Shown here piece by piece: positions 582-26,407 of a stretch of 32,000 nt of DNA (within the stretch, counting starts at the first letter, position 1; each line of letters opens with the position of its first letter). The translations under genes and the position numbers were made by a program. Source of the stretch: Paracoccaceae bacterium (GTDB lineage Bacteria; Pseudomonadota; Alphaproteobacteria; Rhodobacterales; Rhodobacteraceae); assembly GCA_965221815.1 (NCBI GenBank), contig OZ244915.1, positions 694,119-726,118 of the forward strand, in the 5' to 3' direction. The notes under the pieces are model-generated. The model was given only the letters and a program-made list of their open reading frames with translations. It was not told where the DNA came from and searched no databases.

Positions 582-2611
582 GCGGGCAATTGGTTGATCT
601 GTTTGTGGATGTAGATCTTTTGCTTTTCGGTCACCGAGAGAGTCGGGAAAGGTGAAATCTTCACGGCTTGATCCCTTGATTGAGGGACAAACTCATAATG
701 ATGAGCAACAGTCATGATATTCAAAATCAATTTTAACTGCGCCCAAGTGAAACCATTACAGGTATGGGTACCCAAACCGTAAGGACAATATTCGATTTTC
801 CGATGCTCACGCCGTGGCGGAAGATAACGGTCGATATCAAACTTGAGCGGCTCAGGAAAACATGACTCCATGTAATGGCACGCAGTTTGCACGATATGCA
901 CGCGATTTCCAAGAGGTAACGCATAGTCCTCAATCGTGCAGGAATTAGAAATGTTTCGAACTTGCATTGAGACAACAGGATACAGGCGCAAACATTCCAT
1001 CAAGAAACGACGTGTAATATCGAAACGTTCTGCGGAAAAACTCTCTTTCTCGATTTTTCCATTTTTTATCACATTATGGGATTCCTCACGAATTTTTGAA
1101 GCGATATCTGGTTGACGGGCCAATTCGATGAGTGCAAATCCAAAAACATCCCCGACATACATACTTTGCAAAAGAGGTGCGGCTGCGAGCATGAAAGGCA
1201 GATTTTGTTCAGGGAGAAATTGTGGATCACTTTCATGCAAACTGAAGAGGTCATTGGCCAGTTCGCTTATCGCATGCGTACGCATCATCATTGGCGTATG
1301 ATTCTGCTCAATCTGTTGTACAAATGTTTGTAATAGCCTAAACCGCCGCTTCATTTCCGGTGTGCGGGCAAAAAATTTTGGAATGATATTGCCGACTAGG
1401 CTGATTGAGGCTCTCTCCTTGAATGCTATAATGTCTTTAAAAATATCCTGGCAATCAGCGTTGACTAGTATCTGAGTCATCTGCATATTGATCATCAGCC
1501 GTGAAAATTCACGCACACCGAATGCTTGTCCTGGACTCAATTGGTGAGTCTTGAGGAATTTCAATGCCAAACCATATATCTCATCAATGCGCTCATAAAA
1601 TCTTGTTTTGGTATAAACCTGACTAAATATCTTACGTAGCCGGAAATGATCGGCACCATCAAGAGAAGTGATGAGACCGCTAGCCCCGTAAGCCTCTTCC
1701 AACTGACGAAAATAGTTTCCAGATGTCATGTACAAGCGGGCATTCCGTTGACACCATGCATTGACTTTGGGGCCAGAAATAAAGATAAACGGTTCCTTGA
1801 ACGGTGGTTTAAACTGGTAAACTGGACCATACTTCTCCGTAAGATCAGCAAACATTGCAGGCATATTCCCATGATGCGCGTACGCGCTCATGATACTGCC
1901 GATTGACGGGATAGTCGGAATTCTCTTGGAGAGAGGCGTCTTACGAAAACTTGGAGAAATGACCGTTTCTTGAACACTTGAAAAGATTGCACGACTAATC
2001 AATTCGACATCGCAAAGCCACTTGATCCGCTCTTCTTCCCTTTCCGAAATATCAAATATGAAGCGTAGAACATCGCAAGTTTGGAGTAGACTTACGATCA
2101 GCGAATCTCTTGGATCGGGAATTGTATCGGTGTAGATAACTTCTGCAATCCGTGACTTCACGTACTTCCAGGCAGTTTCATTCTCGGAAATACTGTGCAT
2201 TTCCGTGTACCAGAGTGAGTTGTTGATCGCGTAGAACCCCCCCGAATAGTAAGAGAAAATTCCTATTTTCACTAATCGTTTGAGTGTTAAATCAACAATC
2301 AATTCCGAATGTTGTGCAAGATCTTCGATCCAATAGCCCGTCGTCCGCTTTTCTCGACTGGAAGCAATCGAATTCAAGCAGAAGTCCAGTATCGAATCAC
2401 CTGTTTCATTTTGATTGATGACAAACATTGAATTTTCATCGGTATCAATTCGCCCATGAAGAGACAGATCTGCAAGCACCGCCCCAACAACTGCGCAATT
2501 CAGAGTCCAGCCACTCACTTGGTAGAAGTAGCCACTATGCTCATTGAGAATCATCACCAGGAAATCTTCCAAGAGATTCAACGAGCGTTTTTCTGTATCG
2601 ATGTCCAACAT
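578..2611 (-). CDS. Fusion protein: N-terminal GPP34/GOLPH3/Vps74-like domain + C-terminal cytochrome P450
   Basis: A 677-aa ORF on a lower-GC islet. Residues ~1-215 fit the GPP34 pattern (LLEDFLVMILNEHSG, AVVGAVLADLSLHGRID, DPRDSLIVSLLQTCDVLRFIF). Residues ~235-677 are a P450, with K-helix ExxR (ECLR), a PERF-like FDIDRY and the Cys-ligand loop PYGLGTHTCNG. Confidence 0.88.
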   Translation of the reverse strand: MLDIDTEKRSLNLLEDFLVMILNEHSGYFYQVSGWTLNCAVVGAVLADLSLHGRIDTDENSMFVINQNETGDSILDFCLNSIASSREKRTTGYWIEDLAQHSELIVDLTLKRLVKIGIFSYYSGGFYAINNSLWYTEMHSISENETAWKYVKSRIAEVIYTDTIPDPRDSLIVSLLQTCDVLRFIFDISEREEERIKWLCDVELISRAIFSSVQETVISPSFRKTPLSKRIPTIPSIGSIMSAYAHHGNMPAMFADLTEKYGPVYQFKPPFKEPFIFISGPKVNAWCQRNARLYMTSGNYFRQLEEAYGASGLITSLDGADHFRLRKIFSQVYTKTRFYERIDEIYGLALKFLKTHQLSPGQAFGVREFSRLMINMQMTQILVNADCQDIFKDIIAFKERASISLVGNIIPKFFARTPEMKRRFRLLQTFVQQIEQNHTPMMMRTHAISELANDLFSLHESDPQFLPEQNLPFMLAAAPLLQSMYVGDVFGFALIELARQPDIASKIREESHNVIKNGKIEKESFSAERFDITRRFLMECLRLYPVVSMQVRNISNSCTIEDYALPLGNRVHIVQTACHYMESCFPEPLKFDIDRYLPPRREHRKIEYCPYGLGTHTCNGFTWAQLKLILNIMTVAHHYEFVPQSRDQAVKISPFPTLSVTEKQKIYIHKQINQLPA

Positions 2612-6605: not shown

Positions 6606-8933
6606 TCATATGACCTTTTTCGCCGGATCCACCGGTAAATTCTTGATGCGGTCCAAGGCAACAAGGAGAGGCGGAAACAAGAGAAAATCAGCGGCCAGTG
6701 CAATTACTACCGTAATTCCAACCAGAGTACCAAGTGTTTGATTGGTCGCTAGGTCGGAGAGCCCAAAGACCAAAAAACCAATAGCGAAAATCAAGGTTGT
6801 GGTCAAGAGTGGCCCACCGACCATACGAAAAGTCGGTGCAATTGCATCCCGTGGCTGTAGTCCCTCGGCGCGTGACCTTAGATATTTTGACATGATATGA
6901 ATCGTGTCATCTACAATAATGCCAAAAGCAATGGCGGTCACGATAGAGGCAGCCACACTGACAGTTCCAACAGCAAATCCCCAGATTGCCATCGCCATGA
7001 CCGCCGGCAAGAAGTTGGGAATCAAGCTGAGCAGCCCCAATCGGACGCTCTTAAAAATATATACGAGAATCAACGAAACCACTGACATTGCTGCAATAGT
7101 ACCAATGAGCATTCTCTCAATATTTAGAATCACGGAATAGGCACCGATAATCGTCACCCCTGTAGCCATGGTATGGATTTCGGGTGTATTCTCCTGCAGC
7201 CACTGCGACGCTCTCTGGTCAAGTTCAATTTGTTCCCGTACTGACAATTCATCAATTACTGCAGTCAACCGAGAGGATGACCGTTCAAAGTTTATACGCT
7301 GATTCAGGTCGAGTCCCACCGGCAGCGAGAATTCATAGAGTAACAGATACTGTGCTGCCAGATCAGAATTTTCAGGAAGACTGTCAGGATTGTCGATATC
7401 CGTACGCAAATTGCGGTTCAGCCGCTTCATGATATCTGCAATGGAAGTGACATGCGAAACCTCCGGCTGCGTGCGGAGCCAACTGGCAAATGAATCCACG
7501 CGCTGCAGATAGTCAATATCCGTAACGCCGCCCTCACGTCCAGAATCCAGCGAATACTCAAATACGTCAAGGCCAGAAAATCTCTCGCTGATGAAATCAG
7601 CTGATTGACGCAACTCATTTGCCTCATTCAAAAGCTTCAGATTATTGTCATTCAACTCGATTCGTGCAATTCCAATTGCGCTGAACATTGTTATAATAAC
7701 AAATGCCCCGATGAGAATACGACTCTTTGCAACAACAAAGCTCGCGAGTTTTGTGAAGAGTTCAGCCTGTTTTGTCGACCCGGCTTTGACCCGCATTGGC
7801 ATAACGCACATCATAGCTGGCAATAGCGTCACACTATAAATGAAGGCGCACATAGATCCAAAGGCGACAATATTTCCTAAGACTTGGAAGGGCGGCATGT
7901 CCGAAAAATTCAGGCTGAGAAATCCAATGGCGGTGGTGACTGATGTCAGAAAGATTGGACGTAGGTTAACTTGCAGCGCATGACGTGTTGCAGCTCTGCG
8001 GTCCTTGCCCTCTCGCATTCCGTCCATCATTCCCTGGATCAGATGTACAGAATGTGCGACCGCAATTGCCATCAAAACGAAGATTGCCCCCCCGCTCTCA
8101 CCATAGAATTTCAGGCCGACCCATCCGGCAAATCCCATTCCTGAGGTCATTACTGTTGCTAATACTGCGATAATGCCGAGGACACCCCAAGCTGAACGCA
8201 GGACGATAGTAGCGACCGCAATCATTGCCAAGAGCACGGCTGGGCCCAGAACAGAAGAATCGTGATTCAAGGCGTTGCGTATTTCCTGATCAATCAGCAG
8301 TTCACCATAGATGTGGTATTCTGTATCTGGGTTCAATTCAGATTGCGTTTTAATAATTTCTCGCAGCGTTTCGACCGTTCGGACTTTGCTTTCCTGGCGA
8401 TTCTCTTCTGGAACGACCAGGCTGACAACGAGGCCACCGAGACCGCCATCACGAGAAACGAAGCGCCCCCGTGTTTCCATGGAATTAAGGGCGATTTCCT
8501 GAACGCGCGCAATGGCAAGATCATCGAGCGAAGCGGCATCCTCGACAAGGGGATCAACCAAAAGGTCATCACCAATTCCTTCGGAATGCGAGTAATTGGT
8601 CAGCGAATCAACGCGTGTTGCGAAAGGCGTATTCCACAAAGCATCGGTTAGCTGCTCAATTATAACCAGAGCATGACGCGAGAAGATGGACTCACCTGGG
8701 GGATCAACGACCACGAGCACCGTATCAGAGACTGCGTATGTGTCTTCGAAACGCTCCAGATTGACGAGATGTGGGTCATTTTCGCTGAAGTGATTGCGTA
8801 TGCCAACATCGACGACAATGAGGTTTTGAAGCCCGGCAGCAACTGCCACAGCGAGCAAGAGTGAGGCTGTGGCCACACGCCAAGGCCGATTAACAATAAG
8901 GTCAAGAAAGTGAGCCATGACAAAAGCCATCAT
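6606..8933 (-). CDS. RND-superfamily exporter of the MMPL/HpnN/COG1033 type (sterol-sensing-domain-like TM bundles)
   Basis: A 775-aa ORF with a two-fold architecture: TM1, a large soluble loop and a 5-TM bundle, repeated twice. Hydrophobic blocks include GPAVLLAMIAVATIVL, AIAVAHSVHLIQG, FLPAVMAMAIWGF and AFGIIVDDTIH. Size and layout are typical of MMPL/HpnN-like lipid exporters. Confidence 0.85.
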   Translation of the reverse strand: MMAFVMAHFLDLIVNRPWRVATASLLLAVAVAAGLQNLIVVDVGIRNHFSENDPHLVNLERFEDTYAVSDTVLVVVDPPGESIFSRHALVIIEQLTDALWNTPFATRVDSLTNYSHSEGIGDDLLVDPLVEDAASLDDLAIARVQEIALNSMETRGRFVSRDGGLGGLVVSLVVPEENRQESKVRTVETLREIIKTQSELNPDTEYHIYGELLIDQEIRNALNHDSSVLGPAVLLAMIAVATIVLRSAWGVLGIIAVLATVMTSGMGFAGWVGLKFYGESGGAIFVLMAIAVAHSVHLIQGMMDGMREGKDRRAATRHALQVNLRPIFLTSVTTAIGFLSLNFSDMPPFQVLGNIVAFGSMCAFIYSVTLLPAMMCVMPMRVKAGSTKQAELFTKLASFVVAKSRILIGAFVIITMFSAIGIARIELNDNNLKLLNEANELRQSADFISERFSGLDVFEYSLDSGREGGVTDIDYLQRVDSFASWLRTQPEVSHVTSIADIMKRLNRNLRTDIDNPDSLPENSDLAAQYLLLYEFSLPVGLDLNQRINFERSSSRLTAVIDELSVREQIELDQRASQWLQENTPEIHTMATGVTIIGAYSVILNIERMLIGTIAAMSVVSLILVYIFKSVRLGLLSLIPNFLPAVMAMAIWGFAVGTVSVAASIVTAIAFGIIVDDTIHIMSKYLRSRAEGLQPRDAIAPTFRMVGGPLLTTTLIFAIGFLVFGLSDLATNQTLGTLVGITVVIALAADFLLFPPLLVALDRIKNLPVDPAKKVI

Positions 8934-9243: not shown

Positions 9244-10130
<887 letters not shown>

Positions 10131-10719: not shown

Positions 10720-12355
10720 CTTGCAACGGTTCACACTTGTATAGGGGATTTCATTCCAGTTGTTTTTCGCCGATGGCATCACGCACCTGGATTCCCCAGT
10801 TGAGTCGTTCGAGTCCCTGCCAGACCTTTTTCACTCCGGGTCGTGGCTGGCGTTTCGTCGGGTGGGCACCGACGAGGCGTCCGAGGTTGATGACGAAGCT
10901 CTGGATCGTGGGGATCTCGCCCCTCTCCATCCTTTCGACGCCCCTGTGGCCCTGGGCCTCCAGCAGGGTGTGGAGCAGGAGCCTGACGTCCCTTTCGGGG
11001 CAGATATCGGTCGCCGGGGTCTCTGGACGTTCCCGCGCGCGCATGGTGATGTCGGCGACATGGCAGGCGGTGACGGCGTCGAAGGCCAGGCATTTGCGCA
11101 GGTCGTCGGCGGCGTCGAGTCTGCGGTCCGTGATGCGGGTGCCGGACTTGAGGGTTTTGAACCAGGTTTCGATTATCCATCTTGTCCTGTACCAGTCCAG
11201 CACGGTGGTGGCGTGGACGGCGTCGGTTTCCCCCTGTGCCGGGCGTGCGGTCGTGAGCAGCAGCCAGTGCAGTGGCTCCGTGCCGTCGGGGGCGTCGGTC
11301 TCGGTGGCGGAGACGGCGCGCATCGTCAGCGGTTTCGTGCGCTTCCTTTCCTCCTGCGGCGGCAGGAGCGTGACCTCCGCGACCCGGATTTCCAGGCGGG
11401 CGGTGCGCGCCTTTCGGGCCCGCGGGCCTCCGGCGGCCGGGATGACCAGTTCCGACACCGCGATGGCGGGCCGGGCCGCGACGTGCGGCTCCAGAATGTG
11501 ATCCATGGACACTCCCGGGTTCGACAACAGCCGGTACGCGACCGTTTTGGCCGCCGCCACCGGGAAGATGACCGGCAGCTCCTCCCCCATATTCTCCAGC
11601 CAGGCGCGCCCCATGTCAACGATCCGGCGGCGGATCCGCCCGTCGGTGTGGCCGGATCGTCCGGACTCACGCGCGGCCCAGTCGATGTCCATGCCGTCAT
11701 AGGCGCCCGCCAGCGCGCCGACCGGGCGCCGCTCCACGTGGCGCAGCACCGCCCGCCAGCGCGCCGACCGGGCGCCGCTCCACGTGGCGCAGCACCGCGC
11801 GCCAGCCGTCCTCCAGTGCCAGCACCCGCACCGTTCCCGCCGCGGACCGGCGCCCGCTGCCACGCCCGGCGCAGCTCCAGCCCGCGCGGTGGTAGCAGTA
11901 TCCGTTGTGCTCCGGGCCGACATGGGTGTCGGCCGCCACGGGACGAACCAGATACCGGGCCTCCCAATCGTCCGCCACCCGCGCCACCGCCATGTGCAGG
12001 ACCGCCGACGCCAGGCCGTCCACCCGGACGCCGCCGAGCAGGAGGAACCGGTGGTTGCAGATGACGCGCCCGATGTTGGCGGCGCGGGCCCCGGCGGACC
12101 AGCCAATCCAGGCGTCCCGTGCCGCCAGCCTCCAGGCCGCTGAGCCAAAGCCGATACCGCCAAGGACGCCGTGGTGCTCCGCACGGATCCAGTCGCGCAC
12201 CTGCCCGCGGCCCAACGCGTGCCGACTCAGACCGCCGGAGCGAAGCGCCCCGGCCAACCAGTCAAGCGTCTGCGAATCGAAATGGCGAAGACCAACCTGC
12301 ATAACCCGCCATATAAACCAACCGAATCACCGATATAAGTATGAAATGTTGCAAG
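10720..12355 (-). mobile_element. Tn5/IS50-like IS4-family element, copy 2: a DUF4338::transposase fusion with an internal deletion, flanked by a perfect 9-bp target duplication
   Basis: The left end is cttgcaacggttcacacttgtatagg (10720-). The reverse complement of the right end is cttgcaacatttcatacttatatcgg (-12355). The TSD gtctgggtc occurs at 10711-10719 and 12356-12364. ORF 11697..12302 is the DUF4338 module (RVICNHRFLLLGGVRVDGLASAVLHMAVARVADDW). ORF 10751..12184 holds the Tn5-like N-terminus (DIDWAARE...GRIRRRIV...AYRLLSNPGVSMDHILEPH) and C-terminus (WYRTRWIIETWFKTLK...GRLVGAHPTKRQPRPG). The region carrying the first two catalytic D residues is missing. Confidence 0.85.
11705..11796. repeat. 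Perfect 46-bp tandem duplication (2 units) inside Tn5-like copy 2
   Basis: gcccgccagcgcgccgaccgggcgccgctccacgtggcgcagcacc occurs at 11705-11750 and again at 11751-11796. It encodes WRAVLRHVERRPVGALAG twice. 46 is not divisible by 3, so it shifts the frame between ORF 11697..12302 and ORF 10751..12184. Confidence 0.9.
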
Positions 12356-12475: not shown

Positions 12476-12526
12476 GTGGGGCAGACATCCCGCAGGGCTG
12501 CCCAGACACCCGGGGCCCCGTCGTCG

Positions 12527-12740
12527 GTGGCCAGGGTGGTTTCACTTTCCGGGCCCGGCTCACATCAGGGCGCTTTGACAACGTCTGGGCCCAACGGACC
12601 CACAGGCGGCGACATGCCAGCGCCTGTCCCGCCGCGGCCAACGACAATCGCACGCCTCTTGCCAGGGCCGCCTGATTCGCCGAATGAAACCGATCAGGAA
12701 TCAACCAGGGTCCAAACCCAGCCATAGGGGAATCACTCCC
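12527..12740 (+). mobile_element. IS-A right-end fragment (transposase tail + right terminus), 91 bp upstream of and co-oriented with the SMT gene
   Basis: Homologous to 18325-18538. It ends with ...gggtccaaacccagccataggggaatcactccc (12740). Confidence 0.8.
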
Positions 12741-12830
12741 GAGCAGGTACACAAACTTGATCGCCGCGACCGGGTGCGGTAAGATCCGTGGATTGCAGTG
12801 CCCCAATGACGTGGCGTCTGCTAAAACCTT

Positions 12831-13883
12831 ATGGCAGTATGGATTTCTAAGAATATGTTCCGCCTCATTTCCAAAAATGACAACCGCTCGCTTGAACAAC
12901 TTTCCCAGGCTGAAGTAAAATCTGTAGCCGACGAATACCAAGCGATTTATGATGTTGGCGAGGATGAAAGAAAAAAACAGTACAGTTCATTCATAAATCA
13001 TTATTACGATCTGGCGACTGATTTTTACGAATTCGGATGGGGTCGGTGCTTTCACTTCGCTCCCCGCCACCGGAACGAAAGCTTCAAGGATTCCCTGATC
13101 AGGCACCAACATTTTCTTGCTGATCAGCTGGCACTTGAACCGGGAATGCAGGTGCTTGATCTCGGTTGCGGTGTCGGTGGGCCGTTGAGCAATATCGCTC
13201 ACTATTCGGGTGTCAACATAGTCGGTCTTAACAATAACGCCTATCAAATCGAGCGTGCCAAGCTGCATACTAAGGACGTCAGTACCCAATGTCGCTTCAT
13301 CAAGGCCGATTATATGCAGATTCCCGAAAAAGACGATTGCTTCAACGCTGTCTATGCCATCGAAGCGACCCCTCACGCACCGGATCGAACAAGACTTTAC
13401 CGGGAAATTTTACGGGTCTTGCGTCCGGGCGCGCGTTTCGCCAGCTACGAGTGGTGCCTGACCGATAAGTTTGATGCAGTCAACACTAGGCATCAGCGAA
13501 TCGTAGACGATATAATGAGAGGTAACGCACTTCCTGATATTCCGAGCACGTCGGAAATTGACGCCGCTTTGCAATCAGCCGGATTCGAACTTCTGGATAC
13601 GCAAGACCGAGCCGAAGAGGCAGATCGGCAAACTCCTTGGTATCGCCCATTGCAGGGGCGTGACTTTTCTCTTTCCAGTATTCCGCGCACACCATGGGGT
13701 CGCGCTCTGGTAAACTTGACTTTGCGGGCAGGGGAAGCCGTGCAGGTGTTTCCAAAAGGGTCTCGTGCGGTCAGTACGTTTCTCAACAGGGGGGCAGACG
13801 CACTGGTCGAAGGGGGCAAATCAGGGATTTTTACGCCTATGTATTTCGTGTTGGCCCGTAAACCTTTGAATTCGGGCGATTAA
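12831..13883 (+). CDS. Sterol C-24 methyltransferase (ERG6/SMT-family) homologue, SAM-dependent
   Basis: A 350-aa ORF that is collinear with yeast ERG6 as I recall it. It shows DFYEFGWGRCFHF (SMT region I), LDLGCGVGGP (SAM-binding), YAIEATPHAP (region III), ASYEWCLTDKFD (region IV), IPWY-like TPWYRPL and the C-terminal GGKSGIFTPMYFVLARKP. Confidence 0.92.
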   Translation: MAVWISKNMFRLISKNDNRSLEQLSQAEVKSVADEYQAIYDVGEDERKKQYSSFINHYYDLATDFYEFGWGRCFHFAPRHRNESFKDSLIRHQHFLADQLALEPGMQVLDLGCGVGGPLSNIAHYSGVNIVGLNNNAYQIERAKLHTKDVSTQCRFIKADYMQIPEKDDCFNAVYAIEATPHAPDRTRLYREILRVLRPGARFASYEWCLTDKFDAVNTRHQRIVDDIMRGNALPDIPSTSEIDAALQSAGFELLDTQDRAEEADRQTPWYRPLQGRDFSLSSIPRTPWGRALVNLTLRAGEAVQVFPKGSRAVSTFLNRGADALVEGGKSGIFTPMYFVLARKPLNSGD

Positions 13884-14042
13884 GGGAGCGCTACAAAATA
13901 TATGCTCTGCCTGTCACCATATGCCGGAGTGCCTTAAGCATTGGGGCTTATATACTTGAGCCTCTTGCACAATTATCGCGGTTCCGGCGGCCGTGGTCGG
14001 TCATCCGCTTTGGCCGGCCTGCCGGAGCCGGAACCGGCGGCG

Positions 14043-15164
14043 TCAGATCGTGAGCCGCATCAGCCAGTGGACAGTCAGGGCCAGCACGCCGAAGAACAGG
14101 TGGCAGGCGACCTTGAGGTTCCCCCGCACCCGGACATGGCGTCCTCCGTAGGAATCCTTCAGGGCGGAGTTCACCCTCTCGACGTTCGACCGCTGCCTGT
14201 AGCGCACGCGGTCGTGGCGGACCTGGCCCGCCCGGCGCTGGGCGAGCGCCTCCCTCGCGAGGCCCGCCTTCAGCGCCGCGTCCCGGCGGGGGTTGGCGTC
14301 GATGATCGCCACCCGTCCCGCCAGTTGGGCGTGGACGCCGATCTCCCGCGAGTCGTCGGCGGCGTCCATCAGCTCGTAGCAGTGGTCGATCCGCTCGGCA
14401 GTCATCGTCGCCAGCGGGATCGCCGCCTGGCTGTCGTGCCGCGACGCCGAGGTGAGGATACAGCTCACCGGGATGTCCCCGTCGGCGGCGTCTCTATGCA
14501 TTTTGTAGCCACGCCAGCTCTCCCTGGACCCCTTCGCGTTGCGCTTCGTGCCCACGTCGCAGGCCTTCGGCAGCGCGGCCACCATCTCCGCCGTGGACAG
14601 GCCGCCCCGGAGCTGCCGTTCCAGACGGGTGGGCTCCCTGACCAGCCGCTCGCCTTTCCTCGGGCGGCCCCGCCTCCGCTTCCGCTCCGCCTCCGGCTTC
14701 GGCGCGGGCCTCTCCCGTCCCACGATCGCCGTCGAATCCCGGGATACGTGGCCGACGACCGAGCCGTCATAGGCGGCCCTCACCAGCGCCCCGTGCATCC
14801 GCTCGGGGAGCCGGGTCTCCGCGAACCCCGCGAAGGCGCGGGAGAACGTCGACTCGCTCGGCACCTCCGACACGCGGCACCAGCCGCAAAGCCGCCTCAG
14901 CGTCGGGTCGTAAAGCCGCCTGTCGATCAGGGCCCGCGTGGTCGAGAGGTCCCAGACCGCCTTGGCCACGAACGCGCGCGCCCGGGCATTCCGGTCGGCG
15001 GGAGGGGGCCCGACGCCGCGGTGGTCGTAAGGGAGATGCCGCTCCACAGGGGCCAGGTCCAGCACCGCCACGAACCTGCGGTGCGTCTCCCCCAGCGGAC
15101 CCACCTCCTCGGCCAGGAACAGGAAAGGGAGTGGTTCTCGTCTGGCGGACTCGTAAATTTTCAA
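14043..15164 (-). CDS. IS5/IS1182-type transposase (DUF772 N-domain + DDE_Tnp_1), true 5' end removed by the IS-A insertion at 15127
   Basis: A 373-aa ORF containing NARARAFVAKAVWDL...TLRRLCGW...PSESTFSRAF, GRPRKGE, D-rich catalytic blocks and the C-terminal YRQRSNVERVNSALKDSYG...VRGNLKVACHLFFGVLALT. The first 13 codons (MKIYESARREPLP) are encoded by the IS-A terminal repeat, so the annotated start is artificial. Confidence 0.75.
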   Translation of the reverse strand: MKIYESARREPLPFLFLAEEVGPLGETHRRFVAVLDLAPVERHLPYDHRGVGPPPADRNARARAFVAKAVWDLSTTRALIDRRLYDPTLRRLCGWCRVSEVPSESTFSRAFAGFAETRLPERMHGALVRAAYDGSVVGHVSRDSTAIVGRERPAPKPEAERKRRRGRPRKGERLVREPTRLERQLRGGLSTAEMVAALPKACDVGTKRNAKGSRESWRGYKMHRDAADGDIPVSCILTSASRHDSQAAIPLATMTAERIDHCYELMDAADDSREIGVHAQLAGRVAIIDANPRRDAALKAGLAREALAQRRAGQVRHDRVRYRQRSNVERVNSALKDSYGGRHVRVRGNLKVACHLFFGVLALTVHWLMRLTI

Positions 15165-15259
15165 CCTGTTGAAAACGCGTGGTTTTTTGAATCCTGATGG
15201 TGTGCGTTTGGGTGGTTTGGCGGAATTTTTGGAAATATCCCGGAATTTGACCTGATCGG

Positions 15260-16995
15260 CGGGTGCGGCTCAGATTTGTGGCTCATGCTGCAGCGCGCCA
15301 GTGGAAGAAGTCGGCGCCCCGGTTGTTCATCTGGCAGCACCGGATAGCCATGATTGCGTTGGCGCCGTCAACGGACCAGCGGCTGCCGCTTTTTTTGAGT
15401 CGATCGACTACAACGGTCCGGCAGCCGCCTTCGACGAGGCCGCTGCCGCAGGGGAGACCCTGCCGTGTATAGACATCGTAGCGCATGCGGTGCAGGTTGG
15501 GTCTGCAATAATTCACGAACGCCCTGATCGCGGGTGAGCTCTTGGCCAGTGTGGCAAGCGCCGCAAGGACCCGGGCTGCCTCACCGGCCTTGATCCGGGC
15601 CTTGATCCGGTCGAAAGTGGTCTGACGACGCACGGGGTCTTCCAACGTCTCCTTCAGGGCCTCCTGAAGCCTTTCCAGGACATGGAACAGATCGAGCACG
15701 AAGGTCAGGTGCATGCCGGCGAAGACCGTGCGCATCGTCTTTTCGATCCAGGCGGCGCCATCGGACAGGATCACCGCCTCCGCGCTGTCCAGCACACCGC
15801 GCCGCTGCGCCTCCCGCCTCACGCGGGCGGCAAACTCGGACATCCCACCGGTGGTGGGAGCCCGGGCGCTGTCGATCACTGATGATTGGGTGATACTCCC
15901 GGCAACGGCCTTGATCCGGCCCTTGGGGTCAGGCGCCACTTCACAGATGCGCAGCAGCTTGGCTTCGCGCGTCCGGGCTGTGCCATCCGCCTGTTTGCCG
16001 GCGCGCCCGGCAAGTTCGGCAGGCCGGATCGGCACGCCGGTCCCGTCAGCCGCCACCACCGGCCGGGTGGGAATCACCGCCGCCGGGGGGACATCCCTGC
16101 GCTCAAACGCGACCACTTCCCTGCCCAGCGCGCGGGCCAGCCTGTCAAACCGGGACCGGCTGACCCGGGTCCCGCTCAGCTCTTCAAGGAGCGTCACGGC
16201 GCGGCGACTGCCGACCTCCGCAGCGGCGGCCATGACCATCCGCTCGTAGCCCGATGTTGTTGTCCGCCCCTCAAGACGCAACGCGGCGTCCAGCGGGAAG
16301 AGGCCGGTGCGACAGGCCGAACAGCGGTAATGCCGCCGCGCCACCGTCACCTTGCCCAGGCGGGTCATATAGGTCTTGGGACGTTTGTCTCCCCAGCGCG
16401 CCATACGGCCCCCGCAATGGGGGCAGTGCGGGGGATCAAGGGCGTCATCCCGGGCTTCAAGCAGCAGTCGCAATTGGGCCGCTGCCGCGACCAGCGCATC
16501 ACCGCGCAGGGCGGTCTCGACGGCATCCAGATCAACCACTGTCGCGGCCAGTTCCTTCTCGAGCCGTGGCAGGAGATCAGGGGACCGCGCCGCGGACCCC
16601 TCATGCCCTGGCAACTCCGTCGTCGCCAGGCGGCGGCAGATCACCGTTCCATCGAAAATCCGGTATTCGAGGAAACCGTCCCCATCCTGGCGGATCAGCG
16701 GTCGGTTCAGCGCGGCCTCCGCGGCCGACAGACTCCGCAAATACGCGACCACCTCTGGATGCCTGAACTCCTGCTTTTTGTCCCGCTCTTTATCTTGAAC
16801 TGCCATCTGCCTGTGTCTCCTGACTGCCCTGTCGCCAAACCCAACCGGAGCCGTGATGCCGACTCTCCGTGTTCCTGTGGGCGGAAATGGACATAGATCG
16901 ATACAGAGACCGATACAAACCCGCTCCGACGGGCGCTGTCCGGATGTCAGGAAAAAGATCAGTCAGAGCGTGTCCCACAAATCTGAGCCGCACCC
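15260..16995 (-). mobile_element. ISKra4-family element IS-B, apparently intact, inserted into the 5' leader of IS-A
   Basis: The perfect 21-bp terminal inverted repeats are gggtgcggctcagatttgtgg (15261-15281) and ccacaaatctgagccgcaccc (16975-16995). The 8-bp direct repeat ctgatcgg occurs at 15252-15259 and 16996-17003. The uninterrupted target (gaatttgacccgatcggggtg) is visible in IS-A copy 3 at ~22631-22651, in reverse complement. Confidence 0.9.
15283..16806 (-). CDS. ISKra4-family transposase (only intact transposase ORF in the window)
   Basis: A 507-aa uninterrupted ORF. It has a Zn-ribbon-like CPHCGG...YRCSAC, the DDE-region blocks VAADGTGVP and VILSDGAAWI, and the C-terminal GLPCGSGLVEGGCRTVVVDRLKKSGSRWSVDGANAIMAIRC. 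Confidence 0.88.
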   Translation of the reverse strand: MAVQDKERDKKQEFRHPEVVAYLRSLSAAEAALNRPLIRQDGDGFLEYRIFDGTVICRRLATTELPGHEGSAARSPDLLPRLEKELAATVVDLDAVETALRGDALVAAAAQLRLLLEARDDALDPPHCPHCGGRMARWGDKRPKTYMTRLGKVTVARRHYRCSACRTGLFPLDAALRLEGRTTTSGYERMVMAAAAEVGSRRAVTLLEELSGTRVSRSRFDRLARALGREVVAFERRDVPPAAVIPTRPVVAADGTGVPIRPAELAGRAGKQADGTARTREAKLLRICEVAPDPKGRIKAVAGSITQSSVIDSARAPTTGGMSEFAARVRREAQRRGVLDSAEAVILSDGAAWIEKTMRTVFAGMHLTFVLDLFHVLERLQEALKETLEDPVRRQTTFDRIKARIKAGEAARVLAALATLAKSSPAIRAFVNYCRPNLHRMRYDVYTRQGLPCGSGLVEGGCRTVVVDRLKKSGSRWSVDGANAIMAIRCCQMNNRGADFFHWRAAA

Positions 16996-17121
16996 CTGAT
17001 CGGGGTGGAGTCGTTGGGTGTGTCTGCCGGATCAGGTCGCGTGTTCCCGAATGAAAACCCTCCATCATGGAGACCTCTGAGACGGAACACGCGGATGACC
17101 GATTGACACTCTGAAAAGACT

Positions 17122-18473
17122 TTTGCCAAGACCGATACGGACAGGGCGCAGGTGCGGCAGCGGATCGCGGACACCCTGCAGGCCGCGGCGACGCAGTTGC
17201 AGGATACGGGGCTCAAAGAGGATCTGGCCCGCGGGCTGTGGGGTCAGGCCTTTGCGGCGCGCGATGATCATGGGGACCGGTTGCAGATTGATGGGAAAAG
17301 TCCTCGCCAGGTGGCGGCCTCACCGGGTCAGGCGACGACCCTGTTCGGCACGGTGACCTTTCCGCGGGCACGGTCTCGCCCGTCCGGTGCGGGACCCTCC
17401 GGGGTGCCGACAGAGCCGATTCGGGGCCTGACCACGGGTGGGGACGGGCGCGGCGGCTGGTCTTGTGGCGGCGATCATGGCCAGCCGGCCGGCACGGGAT
17501 GCCGCGGATCTCTGGCAGCGGATCTGTGAGGCGGGTCCCGCAACGCGCAGTTTGATCCGGCTGACGGCCGAGGTGGGGCAGGAGTTTGAGGATCAGGCCG
17601 ATGATCGGCTGGAAGAGGTACGGGGCGATGAGAGCCGGCATGATGATGCAGTGGCCCTGCGGGTCTCGCGGGATGGCACGATGCTGCGGATGCCTGCGGA
17701 AGAGCGGGATGGACAGGCCATGGAACCGGGCTGGCGTGAGGCCACCTGCGGCGTTGTGGCCCAACAGGGCAGCGCGGGGACGATGCTGACACAGCGCACT
17801 TTTGCGCGGCGTCCCGAACCCGACCGGACCGGTCTGAAACGCCAGATCAGCCAGGAGGTGTGGCACGGAATACAGCCGGCGGCGGCGCAGGGTCGAGAGT
17901 TGAAGAGTGTCGCTATCGCCGATGGGGCCCGGGACAACGGGACGTGTCTGGAGAGTGTGACCCCGGACATCCGGCTCATCGCTGTCGGGCAGGCCGGCCA
18001 AGTCTCTCAAGGCCGCGGCCGATGCCGCTGACGGGGCCGAAAGTGCCAAGGGCACGGCGGGGTTCGACACACACAAGGCCCTCCTGACAGATGATCCCCA
18101 TTGCGTGGGCCCGGTGATCGATGCGTTGTGTGATCTCCGGCGAAAGAACCCAGGAAACAGTGAGATTACCACCGCCATCGGCACTGTCCGCAGCCCCCGC
18201 CAGCGGAGGCGTGATCGGGAGGCCGGCGATGCCGGCTCTCCCATCGGCAGCGATCCCAAGGAGGCGGCACACACAATGATCGTCACCACCCGGCTCAAGC
18301 GCAGCGGCCAGAGATGGGGTCGTGCCGGTGGCCAGGGTGGTCTCACTGCCCGGGCCCGGCTCACATCAGAGCGCTTTGACAACGTCTGGGCCCAACGGAC
18401 CCACAGGCGGCGACACGCCCAGGTCCACCTCTCGGCCAACGACAATCGCACGCCACTTGCCAGGGTCGCCTGA
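17122..18473 (+). pseudogene. IS-A transposase (ISKra4-like), start codon lost and multiple frameshifts
   Basis: Pieces lie in three frames (ORFs 17152..17529, 17438..18031, 18105..18473). The tail reads AAHTMIVTTRLKRSGQRWGRAGGQGGLTARARLTSERFDNVW. The GTG start seen in copy 3 is TTT here. Confidence 0.8.
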
Positions 18474-18709
18474 TTCGCCAAATGAAACCGATCAGGAATC
18501 AAGCAGGGTCCAAACCCAGCCAGAGGGGAATCACTCCCGGTCGGGCACAATATTGAATCTTGAAAGTAAATATGGCATCAAGATTAGTTGTAAATAGAAC
18601 CTGCAGAAATGCCATCTGATTGTTGAATCAGGTGGTTTGGAATAGATGACCTTTCATCATCGGTATCTTTCTTATTCTCGCTGTTATACAATTTGATTAA
18701 GGCACGGTC

Positions 18710-19789
18710 GTGGACAATTCTCAAACTTATCTGATTTCGGACAATCCCGTATTTGTTACCGGTTCTTCCGGTCATGTCGGGGCAAACCTGATTCGGCGAT
18801 TGCTGCTGGATGGGCAGAGAGTACGCGTTTTTGTACGACAGCAAAGCAAGAATGAAAGCCTTCAGGGCCTTGATGTCGAGACCGCCTATGGAGATCTTCG
18901 CAACCTGGACGAAGTCCGAAAAGCAATGGAGGGCTGCCAAGGCGTTTATCACGTGGCCGCTAAGGTTTCGACGATCAAGGGTAACCGCGCACATCGACGT
19001 GAAATTTTCGACTGTAATGTCATGGGCACACGTAACGTCTTGCAGGCAGCAAAGGAAACTGAGGCTGGTCGGACAGTGGTCACCGGCTCTTTCAGCGCAG
19101 TGGGCTACAATTTGGATAATCCATCTCAGCCCAGTAACGAGATGATGCCTTTCTACCCAATGGAACTGACAATGCCTTATGAGCGAAGCAAGTCATTTAC
19201 CGAACATGAATGCTGGCGAGCGGCAGCGACTGGTCAGGAGGTCATAGTCGCAACAAGTTGCGCGGTAGTTGGAGGCGCAGATTTCGTCCCGTCGAGATTG
19301 GGAAAAACCTTATGTGATTATGCCAATGGAAAGCTGCGCGCCTATATCGAAGGTGGCTTCGAGTTTGTCAATGTCCATGACCTTGTGCAAGGGCATATTC
19401 TCTGCATGCAAAAAGGAAGGTCAGGAGAAAAGTATATTTTTAGCACCGAATATAAAAAGATATCGGAAATCATTGGCCTATTTGAGGACATCACCGGTGT
19501 GCGACGCCCTCAGCGGCAGTTTCCGGCTGCTTTGATGCTGGCATTTTCTGAAGTTATAAGTGGATACCTGAGCCAGTTTCATCCTGACTTTCCACAACGG
19601 TTCACTCCCGGTGCCATCCGACTTCTCAAGAAATGCCGTCATGCCGACACCAGCAAAGCAAGACAGGAGCTCGGCTATCAACCGACATCCATTCGTCACG
19701 CCATCATTGATGCCTATACGTTTCATCACGCGCGCGGAGTGATCACCAATCCAAATGCCAAGCCGCCGCACAACGGGGATCATGATTAG
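18710..19789 (+). CDS. NAD(P)-dependent extended SDR (epimerase/dehydratase family; HpnA-like / 3beta-hydroxysteroid dehydrogenase-like)
   Basis: A 359-aa ORF with a GTG start. It has the Rossmann motif VFVTGSSGHVGANLIRRLL, the NVMGTRNVL block and the catalytic YxxxK (PYERSK). Overall collinearity matches HpnA-type proteins (LEGLDVE..GDL.D, LNGK..AY...G...V.V.D...GH). Confidence 0.85.
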   Translation: MDNSQTYLISDNPVFVTGSSGHVGANLIRRLLLDGQRVRVFVRQQSKNESLQGLDVETAYGDLRNLDEVRKAMEGCQGVYHVAAKVSTIKGNRAHRREIFDCNVMGTRNVLQAAKETEAGRTVVTGSFSAVGYNLDNPSQPSNEMMPFYPMELTMPYERSKSFTEHECWRAAATGQEVIVATSCAVVGGADFVPSRLGKTLCDYANGKLRAYIEGGFEFVNVHDLVQGHILCMQKGRSGEKYIFSTEYKKISEIIGLFEDITGVRRPQRQFPAALMLAFSEVISGYLSQFHPDFPQRFTPGAIRLLKKCRHADTSKARQELGYQPTSIRHAIIDAYTFHHARGVITNPNAKPPHNGDHD

Positions 19790-19968: not shown

Positions 19969-20685
19969 TCACACCGTCACCAGGCGTGCAGGGGCTTGTG
20001 CCGCCGTCTTACCGTCCTCTTGTGTGCGTTTAGGGACCGCCGCAAGCGTGTGCAGTCCGTATTCTCGCAGATTGATCGCTGCGTTCAGGTCTCGGTCATG
20101 GTCCGCGCCGCATTCTGCACACGTCCAGTCTCGATCCTTCAATTCCAATTCTTGATTGATTGCGCCACACTCCGAACAGGTCTTGGAAGATGGATAGAAC
20201 CTGTTCGCTTTGAGAATCGTGCATCCTCGCCATGCGGCTGTGTATTGGAGATAGTGTTTCAGCGCGCCAAAGCCAGCGTCACTGATGGCGCGCGACAAGC
20301 TGCGGTTCTTCACCATACCGCTCACGTTCAGGTCTTCGATCACAATCGTGTCAAAGCGGCGCGTGAGGTCGTCGGACAATTCGTGCAGAACCGCATGTCG
20401 CTGATCGGCAATTCTCTTGTGCAGACGGGCAAGGAACAGCTTGGCTTTCGCAGACCGGTTCGATCCCTTCTGCGTGCGGGACAATCGCCTGTTGCGCCGC
20501 TCAAGACGGCGCAGGTTGGCCTTGAGTTTCTGGTTTGCGGGCACCCGCTCACCATTGGACAAGACGGCCAATTCCGTGATTCCCATATCAACGCCAATCG
20601 CCGTGGACTGGCGGCTTGCGTCCCTGGTGTTGTCATCCTGCGTGTCGATCAGAACCGACGCATAGTATTTTCCAGCGCGCCCTGC
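19969..20685 (-). pseudogene. tnpB: TnpB (IS200/IS605-family RNA-guided nuclease), N-terminally truncated/decayed
   Basis: The in-frame stretch reads GRAGKYYASVLIDTQDD...AIGVDMGITELAVLSNGE (RuvC D), TIVIEDLNVSGM (E), CSECG...WTCAECG (zinc ribbon) and DHDRDLNAAINL (D). An in-frame stop lies at ~20686. Only degenerate WED-like sequence follows, up to ~20845, where GC-rich ISNCY-like DNA starts. Confidence 0.85.
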
Positions 20686-21178: not shown

Positions 21179-22767
21179 GGGAGTGATTCCCCTCTGGCTG
21201 GGTTTGGACCCTGCTTGATTCCTGATTGGTTGCTTTCGGCGAATCATCAGGCGACTTTGGCGAGAGGCGTGCGATTGTCGTTGGCCGAGAGGTGGGCTTG
21301 GGCGTGTCGCCGTCTGTGGGTCAGTTGGGCCCAGACGTTGTCAAAGCGTCCCGATGTGAGCCGGGCCCGGACAGTGAGAACACCCTGGCCACCGGCACGA
21401 CCCCATCTCTGGCCGCTGCGCTTGAGCCGGGTGTTGACGATCATTGTGTGCGCCGCCTCGCCAGCACTGCTGCCGATGGGAGAGCCGGCATCGCGGGCGG
21501 CTTTATAGTCCATCCGCTGGCGGTGACTGCGGACAGTGCCGATGGCAGTGGTGATCTCGCCAGCCCCGGGGGTTTTTCTCTGGGGGAGACCGCAATGCAT
21601 CGATCACCGGGCCCACGCAATGGGGATCATCTGTCAGGATGACCGTGTGTGTATCGAACCCCGCCGTACTCTTGCCGCTCTCGGCCCCGTCAGCGGCATC
21701 GACCGCGGCCTTGAGAGACTTGGCAGGCCTGCCCGACATCGATGAGCCGGATATCCGGGGTCACACTCTCCAGACAAGTCCCGTTGTCCCGGGCCCCATC
21801 GGCGATGACGACACTCTTCAATTCTCTGTCTTGCCCGGCCGCCATGTTCATAAGCCTGTCCATCCCGCTCTTCCGCAGGCATCCGCAGCATCGTGCCATC
21901 CCGCGAGACCCGCAGGGCCACTGCATCATCATGCCGGCTCTCATCGCCCCGTACCTCTTCCAGCCGATCATCGGCCTGATCCTCAAACTCCTGCCCCACC
22001 TCGGCCGTCAGCCGGATCAAACTGCGCGTTGCGGGACCCGCCTCACAGATCCGCTGCCAGAGATCCGCGGCATCCCGTGCCGGCCGGCTGGCCATGATCG
22101 CCGCCACAAGACCAGCCGCCGCGCCCGTCCCCACCCGTGGTCAGGCCCCGAATCGGCTCTGTCGGCACCACGGAGGGTCCCGCACCGGACGGGCGAGACC
22201 GTGCCCGCGGAAAGGTCACCGTGCCGAACAGGGTCGTCGCCTGACCCGACGAGGCCGCCACCTGGCGAGGACTTTTCCCATCAATCTGCAACCGGTCCCC
22301 ATGATCATCGCGCGCCGCAAAGGCCTGACCCCACAGCCCACGGGCCCAACCCGCGACCGCATCACGCAGATCAAGCTCCGCCTGATGCGGATCCTCCCGA
22401 AACAAGCGGGCCAGATCCTCTTTGAGCCCCGTATCCGGCAACTGCGTCGCCGCGGCCTGCAGGGTGTCCGCGATCCGCTGCCGCACCTGCGCTCTGTCCG
22501 TATCGATCTTGGCCACAGAGATGTCAGAGTGTCAATTGGTCATCCGCGTGTTCCGTCTCATACGTCTCCATCATGGAGAATTTTCGTCCTGGAACACGCG
22601 ACCCGATCCGGCAGACACACCCAACAACTTCACCCCGATCGGGTCAAATTCCGGGATTTTTCCAAAAATTCCGCCAAACCACCCAAACGCACACCATCAG
22701 GATTCCAAAAACCACGCGTTTTCAACAGGTTGAAAATTTACGAGTCCGCCAGACGAGAACCACTCCC
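21179..22767 (-). mobile_element. ISKra4-like element IS-A, copy 3 (internally deleted), inserted in the ISNCY-like transposase gene with an 8-bp target duplication
   Basis: The ends are gggagtgattcccctctgg (21179-) and ccagacgagaaccactccc (-22767). The TSD ttcgcgtt occurs at 21171-21178 and 22768-22775. Excision plus one TSD restores ...KKGRPTAVEREREQTPEFTAARQQHPAIES in frame. Confidence 0.9.
21247..22516 (-). pseudogene. IS-A transposase of copy 3, frameshifted with an internal deletion
   Basis: The GTG-start piece is MAKIDTDRAQVRQRIADTLQAAATQL... (ORF 22043..22516). The middle piece is ORF 21634..22134. The tail is ...AAHTMIVNTRLKRSGQRWGRAGGQGVLTVRARLTSGRFDNVW (ORF 21247..21600). Confidence 0.8.
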
Positions 22768-25230: not shown

Positions 25231-25929
25231 ATGATGGAAACTGAGACTGTCACGCCCCAGCAAGGCGTGGACTTTACGCTTATAGGTTTATTTTTTGAAG
25301 CCGGACTGGTCGTTCAGTTGGTGATGCTTCTCTTGCTCCTTGCGTCATTCTGGACTTGGGCAATTATTTTTCAGAAATACTTTAATTTTCGTAGGGTCCG
25401 CAGGGATGCTCAGGAATTTGATCGTAAATTCTGGTCAGGTCAACCATTGGACGAACTGTACAGCACGATGGCCCAAAACCCCAAAGGTGCATCCGAACGG
25501 ATCTTCTGTGCAGCAATGGATGAATGGAAGAAGTCGCAGCGGACAGACGGGATATTGATTGCGGGGGTGCGTTCCCGGATCGATCGATCAATGGGCCTGG
25601 CATCGAGTCGTGAAACCGGAAGACTAGTGCAGGGTCTGGGTTTTCTTGCAACTGTGGGTTCAACCGCACCATTTGTCGGTCTGTTTGGAACCGTTTGGGG
25701 GATTATGCGGGTCTTCAGCGAAATCGGCCTGCAGGAAACAACCAGCCTCATTGTCGTTGCTCCCGGAATTGGTGAAGCGTTGGCTGCGACAGCACTTGGT
25801 TTGCTTGCGGCGATTCCGGCCGTGGTTTTCTACAATAGTCTGTCGGGTGCAGCTGAGCGCCTCGCCGATAATTTCGAGAACTTTTCGGAGGAATTCTCGA
25901 CCATCATATCGCGCCAGTTGGACGATTAA
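25231..25929 (+). CDS. tolQ: Tol-Pal system protein TolQ (MotA/TolQ/ExbB proton channel)
   Basis: A 232-aa ORF with three TM segments and the conserved C-terminal ATVGSTAPFVGLFGTVWGIM...VAPGIGEALAATALGLLAAIPAVVFYN. It is the first gene of the tolQRAB-pal order. Confidence 0.95.
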   Translation: MMETETVTPQQGVDFTLIGLFFEAGLVVQLVMLLLLLASFWTWAIIFQKYFNFRRVRRDAQEFDRKFWSGQPLDELYSTMAQNPKGASERIFCAAMDEWKKSQRTDGILIAGVRSRIDRSMGLASSRETGRLVQGLGFLATVGSTAPFVGLFGTVWGIMRVFSEIGLQETTSLIVVAPGIGEALAATALGLLAAIPAVVFYNSLSGAAERLADNFENFSEEFSTIISRQLDD

Positions 25930-25930
25930 A

Positions 25931-26407
25931 TTGCCTTCCCCGGTTTATCGATCAGAGCCACAGAAAGGTCGGCGACGAACAAAGTTCCGTCCCATGGCGG
26001 AAATCAATGTCACGCCGTTTGTTGATGTTGTCCTTGTCTTGTTGATCATCTTTATTGTGGCCGCACCGCTGCTGACAGTTGGCATACCGGTTCAACTGCC
26101 GGAAACCAAAGCCAATCCGCTCCCTTCTGAGCCTGAGCAGCCATTGACGCTATCAGTTGCCGTTGATGGGCGGGTTGCTCTGCAATCATCAGAAATTCCC
26201 CGGGAAGAATTGATTGCGAGATTGACTGCCGTGATTGAGGAACGTGATTCGGATCGGATCTATGTTCGCGGTGACCGTGATGCGCGCTATGAGGTGATCA
26301 TGAAGGTCATGGGAGATCTGAACGATGCAGGATTCCGAAATATCGGGTTGGTGACGAACAGCGAAGAGACCCGTGATGACATCGCCGCCAGCGATTTGTC
26401 GAACTGA
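25931..26407 (+). CDS. tolR: Tol-Pal system protein TolR (ExbD/TolR family)
   Basis: MAEINVTPFVDVVLVLLIIFIVAAPLL...PVQLP...DRIYVRGDRDARYEVIMKVMGDLNDAGF. The start is ambiguous. TTG at 25931 would give an Arg-rich cytoplasmic tail (GRRRTKFRP). ATG at 25994 is the conservative alternative. Confidence 0.88.
   Translation: MPSPVYRSEPQKGRRRTKFRPMAEINVTPFVDVVLVLLIIFIVAAPLLTVGIPVQLPETKANPLPSEPEQPLTLSVAVDGRVALQSSEIPREELIARLTAVIEERDSDRIYVRGDRDARYEVIMKVMGDLNDAGFRNIGLVTNSEETRDDIAASDLSN

Follow-up and report, generated by a model that had tools for sequence, protein, structure and literature searches.

The present work concerns a gene for a sterol C-24 methyltransferase (SMT) in a stretch of 32,000 nucleotides from an uncultured bacterium of the Paracoccaceae (assembly GCA_965221815.1, contig OZ244915.1, positions 694,119 to 726,118); this whole stretch is termed the window, and positions are counted from its first letter. 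The account that best joins the observations, and one that is probably correct, is that of an intact SMT resident in the genome of a sponge symbiont, whose sterol gene cluster has been eroded by insertion sequences (IS). The unusual part is that the IS took the neighbouring ring-building genes and the SMT survived; bacterial SMTs themselves are already known. The family of the protein, the intactness of its gene, the identity of the host, the erosion of the cluster and the breakpoints of that erosion are matters of observation.

As far as its sequence can tell, the gene is a genuine and intact SMT of the ERG6 type, with all of the canonical regions, as originally predicted. The C-terminal part of the protein matches Pfam Sterol_MT_C (PF08498) at 77.3 bits (gathering cutoff 21.7 bits; E = 9.5e-22; residues 286-345, profile positions 6-65 of 66), Pfam class I methyltransferase domains are matched as well, and the claimed collinearity with fungal SMTs is borne out by BLASTP against ERG6 of Saccharomyces cerevisiae (41% identity over 314 amino acids (aa), E = 5e-87). 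With motif positions numbered by the verified ERG6 sequence (P0241) and residues by the 350-aa protein of the window, Region I (YEFGWGRCFHF, residues 66-76) fits the motif Y81-E-(Y/F)-GWGxxFHF-91. Region II (LDLGCGVGGP, residues 109-118) holds all five conserved residues (5/5) of the motif 125-DxGxGxxGP-133, as D110-L-G-C-G-V-G-G-P118. Region III (YAIEATPHAP, residues 175-184) includes E178, the counterpart of E195, and Region IV has G200 (G217 of ERG6) and YEWCLTD at 206-212, within the block YEWCLTDKFD at 206-215. Together with the C-terminal block GGKSGIFTPMYFVLARKP at residues 328-345, these are the five blocks quoted in the original prediction, and by this comparison their agreement with SMTs is far beyond chance. 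The 350-aa protein of that prediction exists as an ATG-started open reading frame (ORF) at 12831..13883 on the plus strand, yet its start is more likely at 12855, which gives 342 aa. The public annotation (P0001, 342 aa, 100% identical) begins at M9 of the longer frame, as do homologues; the start ATG of relatives reads AAG in the window gene, the one at 12831 being specific to this lineage.

An AlphaFold model from a 149-sequence alignment has a class I methyltransferase fold (pLDDT 85.7, pTM 0.85); an earlier model from 13 sequences (pLDDT 47) was discarded. When the model was compared with the PDB by Foldseek, only generic class I methyltransferases of non-sterol small molecules were returned, because, to our knowledge, no SMT structure has been solved to date. 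These nearest structures, together with matches to CMAS profiles and to those of class I methyltransferases in general and the lack of a cyclase among the genes found for this genome, would fit a protein that only resembles SMTs and methylates a lipid other than a sterol, for example a different triterpenoid or a fatty-acyl chain. Such a function is very improbable. The C-terminal domain specific to SMTs is present, as are the four regions for sterol and S-adenosylmethionine (SAM), the NCBIfam non-sterol methyltransferase models reach just 45-59 bits against cutoffs of 155-650, the orthologues sit inside sterol operons, and homologues of 58-68% identity have been assayed on sterols, most of them being active. 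Contamination by eukaryotic (sponge) DNA was considered and dismissed: the contigs are bacterial and of Mb scale, and the SMT is enclosed by bacterial IS elements and a Tol-Pal operon.

The sequence also allows a prediction of the product. Twenty-five residues are conserved in every SMT that proved active in vitro, and departures from them are frequent among inactive SMTs (Brown & Welander 2025; bioRxiv 10.64898/2025.12.19.695621); the window protein keeps 24 of the 25, the exception being D189 of ERG6, which is N172 here. At ERG6 position 249 it has N232 and so is without the glycine needed by propylating SMTs, while Y81 and F83 are present. Asparagine at this position is shared by 106 of the 275 bacterial SMTs compared; one of them is an assayed protein from Petrosia ficiformis (LXNJ01014139, L090), which has the signature Y81/F83/N249 in common with the window SMT. 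Published mutagenesis found G249 to be needed, though not sufficient, for formation of 24-isopropyl (C30) sterols; a G249N mutant retained the formation of C28 and C29, and no mutant with a residue other than glycine at 249 gave C30 (bioRxiv 10.64898/2025.12.19.695621). Since position 249 is N and not G, the window SMT is predicted to methylate once or perhaps twice (C28, possibly C29) and to form no 24-isopropyl C30 sterol. By analogy with the family, the class I Rossmann core would bind SAM through Region II (DLGCGVGGP), the side chain of a delta-24 sterol would lie against Region I (Y66-E-F68-GWG), and the methyl group would be moved to C-24, with subsequent deprotonation to 24-methyl(ene) sterols. 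In this scheme the catalytic activity and the range of products are inferred, as is whether the cell still offers a substrate.

The nearest experimental systems are the SMTs of Brown et al. (2023; Nat Commun 14:1859, PMC10070321), who assayed 24 metagenomic SMTs and found that sterols were alkylated by 8 of 10 from sponge symbionts and 12 of 14 from the environment. The window SMT is 68% identical to one of these from the S. foetidus metagenome (LXNI01004480, L089), 65% identical to the above-mentioned LXNJ01014139 and 58% identical to a second protein from P. ficiformis (LXNJ01003202, L102). It is of the same family and length as their symbiont SMTs and shares the motifs of Regions I-IV and the sponge-microbiome source, but differs from them in that it is cut off from its cluster, is abutted by IS and has N and not D at position 189. 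The propylating SMTs, from a Chlamydiae drinking-water metagenome-assembled genome (MAG) and from symbionts of Aplysina aerophoba, belong to the same family; in Region I the window SMT resembles the Chlamydiae protein at F83, and it has N232 in place of their G249. All four regions and Sterol_MT_C of yeast ERG6 and plant SMT1 are likewise found in the window protein, in which, compared to ERG6, the N-terminus is shorter, two aa are deleted between Regions II and III and six aa are deleted near ERG6 residues 295-300. Relative to ERG6 and SMT1, it has F83 for Y83 and N249 for D249.

The phylogeny with eukaryotic and bacterial SMTs that the original prediction had proposed as a check was built by neighbour joining, and it places the window SMT in a bacterial clade separate from ERG6 and soybean (Glycine max) SMT1. 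Its Kimura distance from ERG6 is 1.13 and that from soybean SMT1 is 0.79-0.89, as against a bacterial mean of 0.50. Within the bacteria it groups (bootstrap 100) in a clade of 12 that includes the SMTs of three named Paracoccaceae MAGs, where the gene is part of an intact sterol operon. The alphaproteobacterial context noted earlier is in keeping with this placement: Pal, TolQ and CpoB of the window fall in clusters of at least 90% identity with proteins of MAGs that carry the NCBI names Paracoccaceae or Rhodobacteraceae bacterium. A sibling assembly (3,547,933 bp; 1367x coverage in its sample) encodes an identical SMT protein in a somewhat different arrangement of IS. Metagenomes of sponges and MAGs of sponge symbionts are the source of the relatives, with Aplysina, Petrosia, Sarcotragus, Spongia and Ircinia-type bins among them. 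The host is an uncultured member of the Paracoccaceae (Rhodobacterales) and very likely lives in association with a sponge.

The statement that bacterial SMTs are rare, which had accompanied the prediction, does not survive a wider search. Relatives of the window SMT are present in at least 548 species-representative genomes of GTDB, scanned at one genome per species, and the protein database holds 2202 clusters related to it at E <= 1e-10. Bacterial SMTs encoded in clusters of this type have, moreover, been assayed in vitro (PMC10070321; bioRxiv 10.64898/2025.12.19.695621). For phylum, identity and gene neighbourhood, the best 80 of these loci (at least 548) were considered. They are 55-74% identical to the window SMT, are derived mostly from sponge-symbiont MAGs and span at least nine phyla, among them Alpha- and Gammaproteobacteria, Nitrospirota, Nitrospinota, Gemmatimonadota, Chloroflexota, Acidobacteriota, Binatia, Verrucomicrobiota and Rhodothermales.

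The SMT of the closest relatives is part of a sterol gene cluster, which is intact at loci L003-L006 and L170. There, a convergent and slightly overlapping gene for a fusion of squalene epoxidase (SE) and oxidosqualene cyclase (OSC) adjoins the SMT; after it come CYP51, ERG24 and the genes for a Rieske oxygenase (SdmA-like) and for a 3-beta-hydroxysteroid dehydrogenase (HSD; SdmB-like). The same architecture, as SMT, ERG1+ERG7 fusion, ERG11, ERG24, sdmA and sdmB, has been published for a contig from A. aerophoba, in which the HSD of the cluster is termed sdmB (PMC10070321). Within 10 kb of the SMT, SE and OSC were found at 58 of the 80 loci, CYP51 at 63 and ERG24 at 59, and the Rieske and HSD genes lie near the SMT at 58 and 56, respectively. 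The upstream order GPP34-P450, MMPL transporter with a sterol-sensing domain (SSD), in some cases DUF1329, and SMT recurs in several lineages. The window retains this order, as GPP34-P450, MMPL, SMT and HSD, with DUF1329 just to its left (L088).

What is missing is the middle of the cluster. By tblastn, SE-OSC, CYP51, ERG24 and the Rieske oxygenase left no trace in the window, in the sibling locus L001 or in L002: the ERG24 and Rieske queries gave zero matches in all three, and the CYP51 query from L003 matched only the GPP34-P450 gene of the window (30% over 148 aa). Alignment to the intact clusters of L003, L004 and L005 runs precisely up to the stop codon of the SMT (13883) and no further; a short spacer stands here where SE-OSC starts in the relatives, and homology to L003 on the other side begins at 12764. 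Scans with Rfam and for tRNA genes revealed nothing relevant. In the history that we consider probable, the SMT belonged to an extended cluster of the sponge-symbiont type, in the order DUF1329, GPP34-P450, MMPL/SSD, SMT, SE-OSC, CYP51, ERG24, SdmA, SdmB. High-GC IS (IS4, IS5/IS1182-like, ISKra4, IS110, IS256 and IS605) then invaded this resident cluster, a single contiguous block SE-OSC-CYP51-ERG24-SdmA was lost from between SMT and SdmB, and SdmB was flipped between two inverted ISKra4-like copies.

In most sponge-symbiont clusters, across many phyla, SE and OSC form one fused protein of ~1130-1180 aa. Examples are found at 11024-14425 of L003 and 6298-9852 of L005, and the 58 of 80 loci mentioned above lie among L008-L087.

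The IS ends that directly flank the SMT were confirmed, a truncated ISKra4-like end at ~12756 (beside an IS4 element) upstream and an IS5/IS1182-like element from ~13957 downstream. The horizontal acquisition that the original prediction had thought plausible from these flanks is contradicted by the remaining evidence, which argues that the SMT was not delivered by IS and is instead probably a resident gene, high-GC IS having invaded and eroded the cluster around it. Among the reasons, GC content at third codon positions (GC3) is that of the host, the clade is of the Paracoccaceae, and the flanking IS are of unlike families. The SMT has a GC/GC3 of 50/52%, its GC3 being in line with that of HSD (0.51), MMPL (0.50) and the Tol-Pal genes (0.52-0.56; host housekeeping genes 51-56%), whereas the IS transposases are compositionally foreign (GC 66-71%, GC3 0.77-0.90).

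A recent import of the SMT as an IS-bounded cassette by horizontal transfer is therefore improbable, even though some features would suit it. The IS ends are ~100 bp upstream and 74 bp downstream of the gene, leaving just 1.2 kb of non-IS DNA around it, and a related IS5-like element lies beside the SMT in L004. An SMT allele has been swapped between L003 and L004 within an otherwise 96-100% identical cluster, the SMT of L169 has 55.6% GC within DNA of 65% GC, and the whole sterol/IS region interrupts the ruvCAB-ybgC/tolQRAB-pal array. Against this, no two copies of one IS surround the SMT, and the flanking elements, one of them a truncated fragment, do not form a composite transposon. The nearest SMTs are from the same bacterial family, the order P450-MMPL-SMT...HSD is that of the intact extended cluster, and none of the PLSDB plasmids searched carries the SMT family. 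Older or family-wide horizontal transfer of SMTs appears real from the gene comparisons, with SMTs 58-74% identical to that of the window spread across phyla; the IS flanks of this locus, however, do not record it. The SMT as a low-GC cassette that hops between hosts was rejected as a general rule, since its GC3 tracks that of the core cluster genes over 63 cluster-linked loci (r = 0.93).

Two loci are of interest in this respect. The SMTs of L003 and L004, two contigs of Paracoccaceae type (both at 10001-11035), have a dS of 0.81 and a dN of 0.135, the rest of the cluster showing 96-100% protein identity and the HSD a dS of 0.025; L004 has its IS5-like element just upstream of the SMT. By these values, recombination seems to have exchanged the SMT and nothing else. 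In L169, from a 65% GC genome in the same sample, two inverted GPP34-P450 copies (676 aa, 100% identical; 6960-8990 on the minus and 12823-14853 on the plus strand) enclose the SMT together with an SRPBCC gene, with no core sterol genes or IS in the neighbourhood of the SMT. This inverted duplication could be real or an assembly artefact. An origin of the window arrangement from one of the L169 type was rejected, the P450 of the window being just 39% identical to those copies.

Several points weigh against the reading of an intact, resident SMT as proposed here. The gene has just ~100 bp of native upstream DNA, and no sigma-70-like promoter was recognised in a scan of this flank. In a search with the SE-OSC fusion of L003, no OSC was found for this organism among the best 120 SE-OSC clusters, in which the listed members of the 20 top clusters were checked; the search took in both large contigs of the organism with hits at >=66% identity and is incomplete (unlisted members and other contigs fall outside it), and it did recover the OSCs of relatives. 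With no OSC attributed to either assembly, the SMT may lack an endogenous substrate. A protein considered as evidence of a third strain (P0428) proved to belong to another organism, whose cluster is intact (L170). Position 189, invariant as D in functional SMTs, is N in the window SMT and is other than D in just 11 of 275 bacterial homologues (D 264, N 6, A 3, S 1, G 1). This substitution is unusual but recurrent, and on alignment evidence it would be older than the erosion of the cluster, because N or S occurs in relatives with intact genes or clusters: the closest relative (P0002) has S189 within a complete sterol cluster, and P0007 has N189, likewise in an intact gene. The product prediction, furthermore, is built on mutagenesis of other SMTs. 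Support for current purifying selection is weak, because the SMT differs from that of the sibling strain by just three substitutions and the flanks are equally unchanged. All three substitutions are synonymous (conditional p ~0.012), and omega relative to L003 (0.17) equals the value for a pair of genomes with intact clusters. Divergence of the native flanks was rejected as a neutral yardstick, being uninformative at 0 of 171 changed positions between the strains.

Some of these points would be expected if the SMT were an orphan relic, an ORF that has not yet decayed but lacks a substrate or expression after loss of the cyclase and demethylation genes. Four core genes are lost from the locus, a single contiguous deletion accounts for that loss without selection, the departure at position 189 is at an otherwise 96%-conserved site, and the sibling strains are so close that three synonymous changes tell little; the short native flank and the lack of an OSC fit as well. 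A relic is nonetheless rather unlikely. Five sterol-related ORFs (DUF1329, GPP34-P450, MMPL, SMT and HSD) are full-length amid the IS, which make up more than half of the region and every one of which lies between and none within them. The deletion boundary falls exactly at the SMT stop codon, the SMT has had no nonsynonymous change since the strains split, and N189 is older than the erosion.

A retained SMT in an eroded cluster might also be put to use by a symbiont that has no de novo ring synthesis, imports sterols of its host and alkylates their side chains with a retained tailoring and transport set. This we put forward only tentatively, as it is on balance unlikely. The set would consist of the SMT, the SdmB-like dehydrogenase, the GPP34-P450, the MMPL/sterol-sensing transporter and the DUF1329 lipoprotein.

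The features of the window are collected in Table 1.

Table 1. Sterol-related genes, insertion sequences and boundary genes of the window, in order of position.
Feature	Position	Strand	Remarks
GPP34 (GOLPH3-like)-P450 fusion	578..2611	-	677 aa; Pfam GPP34 N-terminal, p450
MMPL/RND-type transporter	6606..8933	-	775 aa; Pfam MMPL 109 bits, Patched SSD, Sterol-sensing
IS4-family transposase gene	10751..12184	-	NCBIfam transpos_IS4_3 155 bits (cutoff 160); Pfam DDE_Tnp_1, Tnp_DNA_bind
Truncated ISKra4-like end	12520..12756	+	points at SMT; 90% identical to 18319-18539, 86% to 21179-21401
Native 5' flank of SMT	12757..12854	+	~100 bp; 0 differences from sibling L001
SMT coding sequence	12855..13883	+	342 aa from annotated start M9; in-frame ATG 12831 as alternative (350 aa)
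Spacer after SMT stop codon	13884..13956		73 bp; no intact-cluster homology; 0 differences from L001; SE-OSC site in relatives
IS5/IS1182-like IS	13957..15259	-	transposase ORF 14043-15164 (-); NCBIfam IS1182/IS5 below cutoff; Pfam DDE_Tnp_1, DUF772
Intact ISKra4-family transposase	15283..16806	-	507 aa; NCBIfam transpos_ISKra4 232 bits (cutoff 205)
Degenerate ISKra4-like element, left inverted copy	16995..18553	+	inverted repeats; weak ISKra4 match for ORF 17438-18031
SdmB-like NAD(P)-dependent 3-beta-HSD/decarboxylase homologue	18710..19789	+	359 aa; Pfam Epimerase, 3Beta_HSD
IS605-type TnpB fragment	19969..20586	-	205 aa; Pfam OrfB_IS605, Cas12f1-like_TNB
Degenerate ISKra4-like element, right inverted copy	21179..22643	-	inverted repeats
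tolQ-(tolR)-tolA-tolB-pal-cpoB operon	25231..30826	+	Pfam MotA_ExbB, TolB_N/PD40, OmpA, TPR; right boundary of sterol/IS region

Roughly half of the 32 kb is derived from IS, as estimated from the coordinates of the elements, and fragments of IS110 and IS256 are present in addition to those of the table. The IS4-family transposase gene is probably degraded, a perfect 46-bp tandem duplication within it (11704-11795) probably contributing to this. The IS5/IS1182-like element has end repeats at 15125-15259 and 22635-22769, and an 83% identical copy adjoins the SMT in L004 and L008. The insertion of the intact ISKra4 element is missing from the sibling strain (L001). The two degenerate ISKra4-like copies, of ~1.5 kb each and 86-98% complementary, enclose the HSD gene and the TnpB fragment, and such an inverted pair is a ready substrate for inversion; the HSD gene is reversed relative to the intact clusters because these copies bracket it. 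The same ISKra4-like end lies before the SMT, at 12756, and again before the HSD gene, at 18553, aimed at each, and an outward-reading promoter in this end is conceivable. Between the IS cluster and tolQ lie two high-GC ORFs on the plus strand, of 373 aa (22983-24104) and 235 aa (24209-24916), for which Pfam and NCBIfam gave no match. The former recurs in the sibling genome (L001 20646-21029), and both may belong to an unrecognised mobile element.

The remaining sterol-related genes differ in their closeness to those of the intact clusters. The HSD shares 72% identity with its counterpart in the L003 cluster, and the MMPL protein is 63% identical to the cluster-adjoining MMPL of L005 and L043. 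The GPP34-P450 gene has the lowest GC content in the window (43.5%), and its product is 39% identical to the copies of L003 and L169 and at best 45% identical elsewhere; by these identities it is a divergent paralogue of the recurrent accessory gene of sterol clusters. The solved P450 structures nearest to it are CYP51 and steroid P450s, matched weakly (E ~1e-15), and a GPP34 domain adjoins the SMT at 19 of the 80 loci. A 76-nt repeat (87% identical; 436-511 and 6466-6541) follows the stop codons of the minus-strand GPP34-P450 and MMPL genes by ~65 nt, and could be a shared terminator, a regulatory element or an IS end. A gene for a DUF1329/TP_0789-like (LolA-like) lipoprotein stands beside the sterol region in this genome (L088 15154-16026), and in several Gammaproteobacterial clusters DUF1329 is directly upstream of the SMT (~8700-9500 in L070, L071 and L076; 5064-5867 in L097). 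This lipoprotein is a candidate periplasmic sterol carrier that would partner the MMPL transporter.

A bacterial C-4 demethylation pair, SdmA and SdmB, and RND-type sterol transport systems are present in Methylococcus capsulatus. The MMPL protein of the window carries the signature of a sterol-sensing domain, and MMPL genes co-occur with SMTs. The window HSD is an orthologue of the cluster gene that Brown et al. (PMC10070321), who cite the homology to sdmAB, equate with sdmB, and its Rieske partner SdmA is absent from the locus.

On the right, the sterol/IS region is bounded by the tol-pal operon, and on the left ruvC-ruvA-ruvB-ybgC lies outside the window (L088 16584-19224), with ~35-40 kb of sterol genes and IS between the two. 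In many proteobacteria ruvCAB-ybgC and tolQRAB-pal form a contiguous array. Since the region splits genes that are usually contiguous, it resembles an island, and may be an old one or the outcome of an IS-mediated rearrangement.

Steranes alkylated at C-24 serve as biomarkers of eukaryotes and sponges, and any bacterial source of the parent sterols thus matters; one has already been shown experimentally (PMC10070321). The SMT family, whose GTDB carriers are nearly all from sponge microbiomes, is far more widespread than the word rare would suggest, and by its Y81/F83/N249 signature the member studied here is predicted to be no source of 24-isopropyl sterols. If the gene were a mere relic, it would be an ordinary case of a symbiont pathway eroded by IS. 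If the retained set did act on imported sterols, the bacterium would be a source of C-24-alkylated sterols for the holobiont though not itself a producer of sterols, and genome surveys that take OSC as the marker of bacterial sterol capacity would miss such tailoring. The locus is a concrete case of an SMT that has outlasted the rest of its pathway in an IS-rich symbiont genome, and it raises the idea that some symbionts may tailor the sterols of their host instead of making their own.

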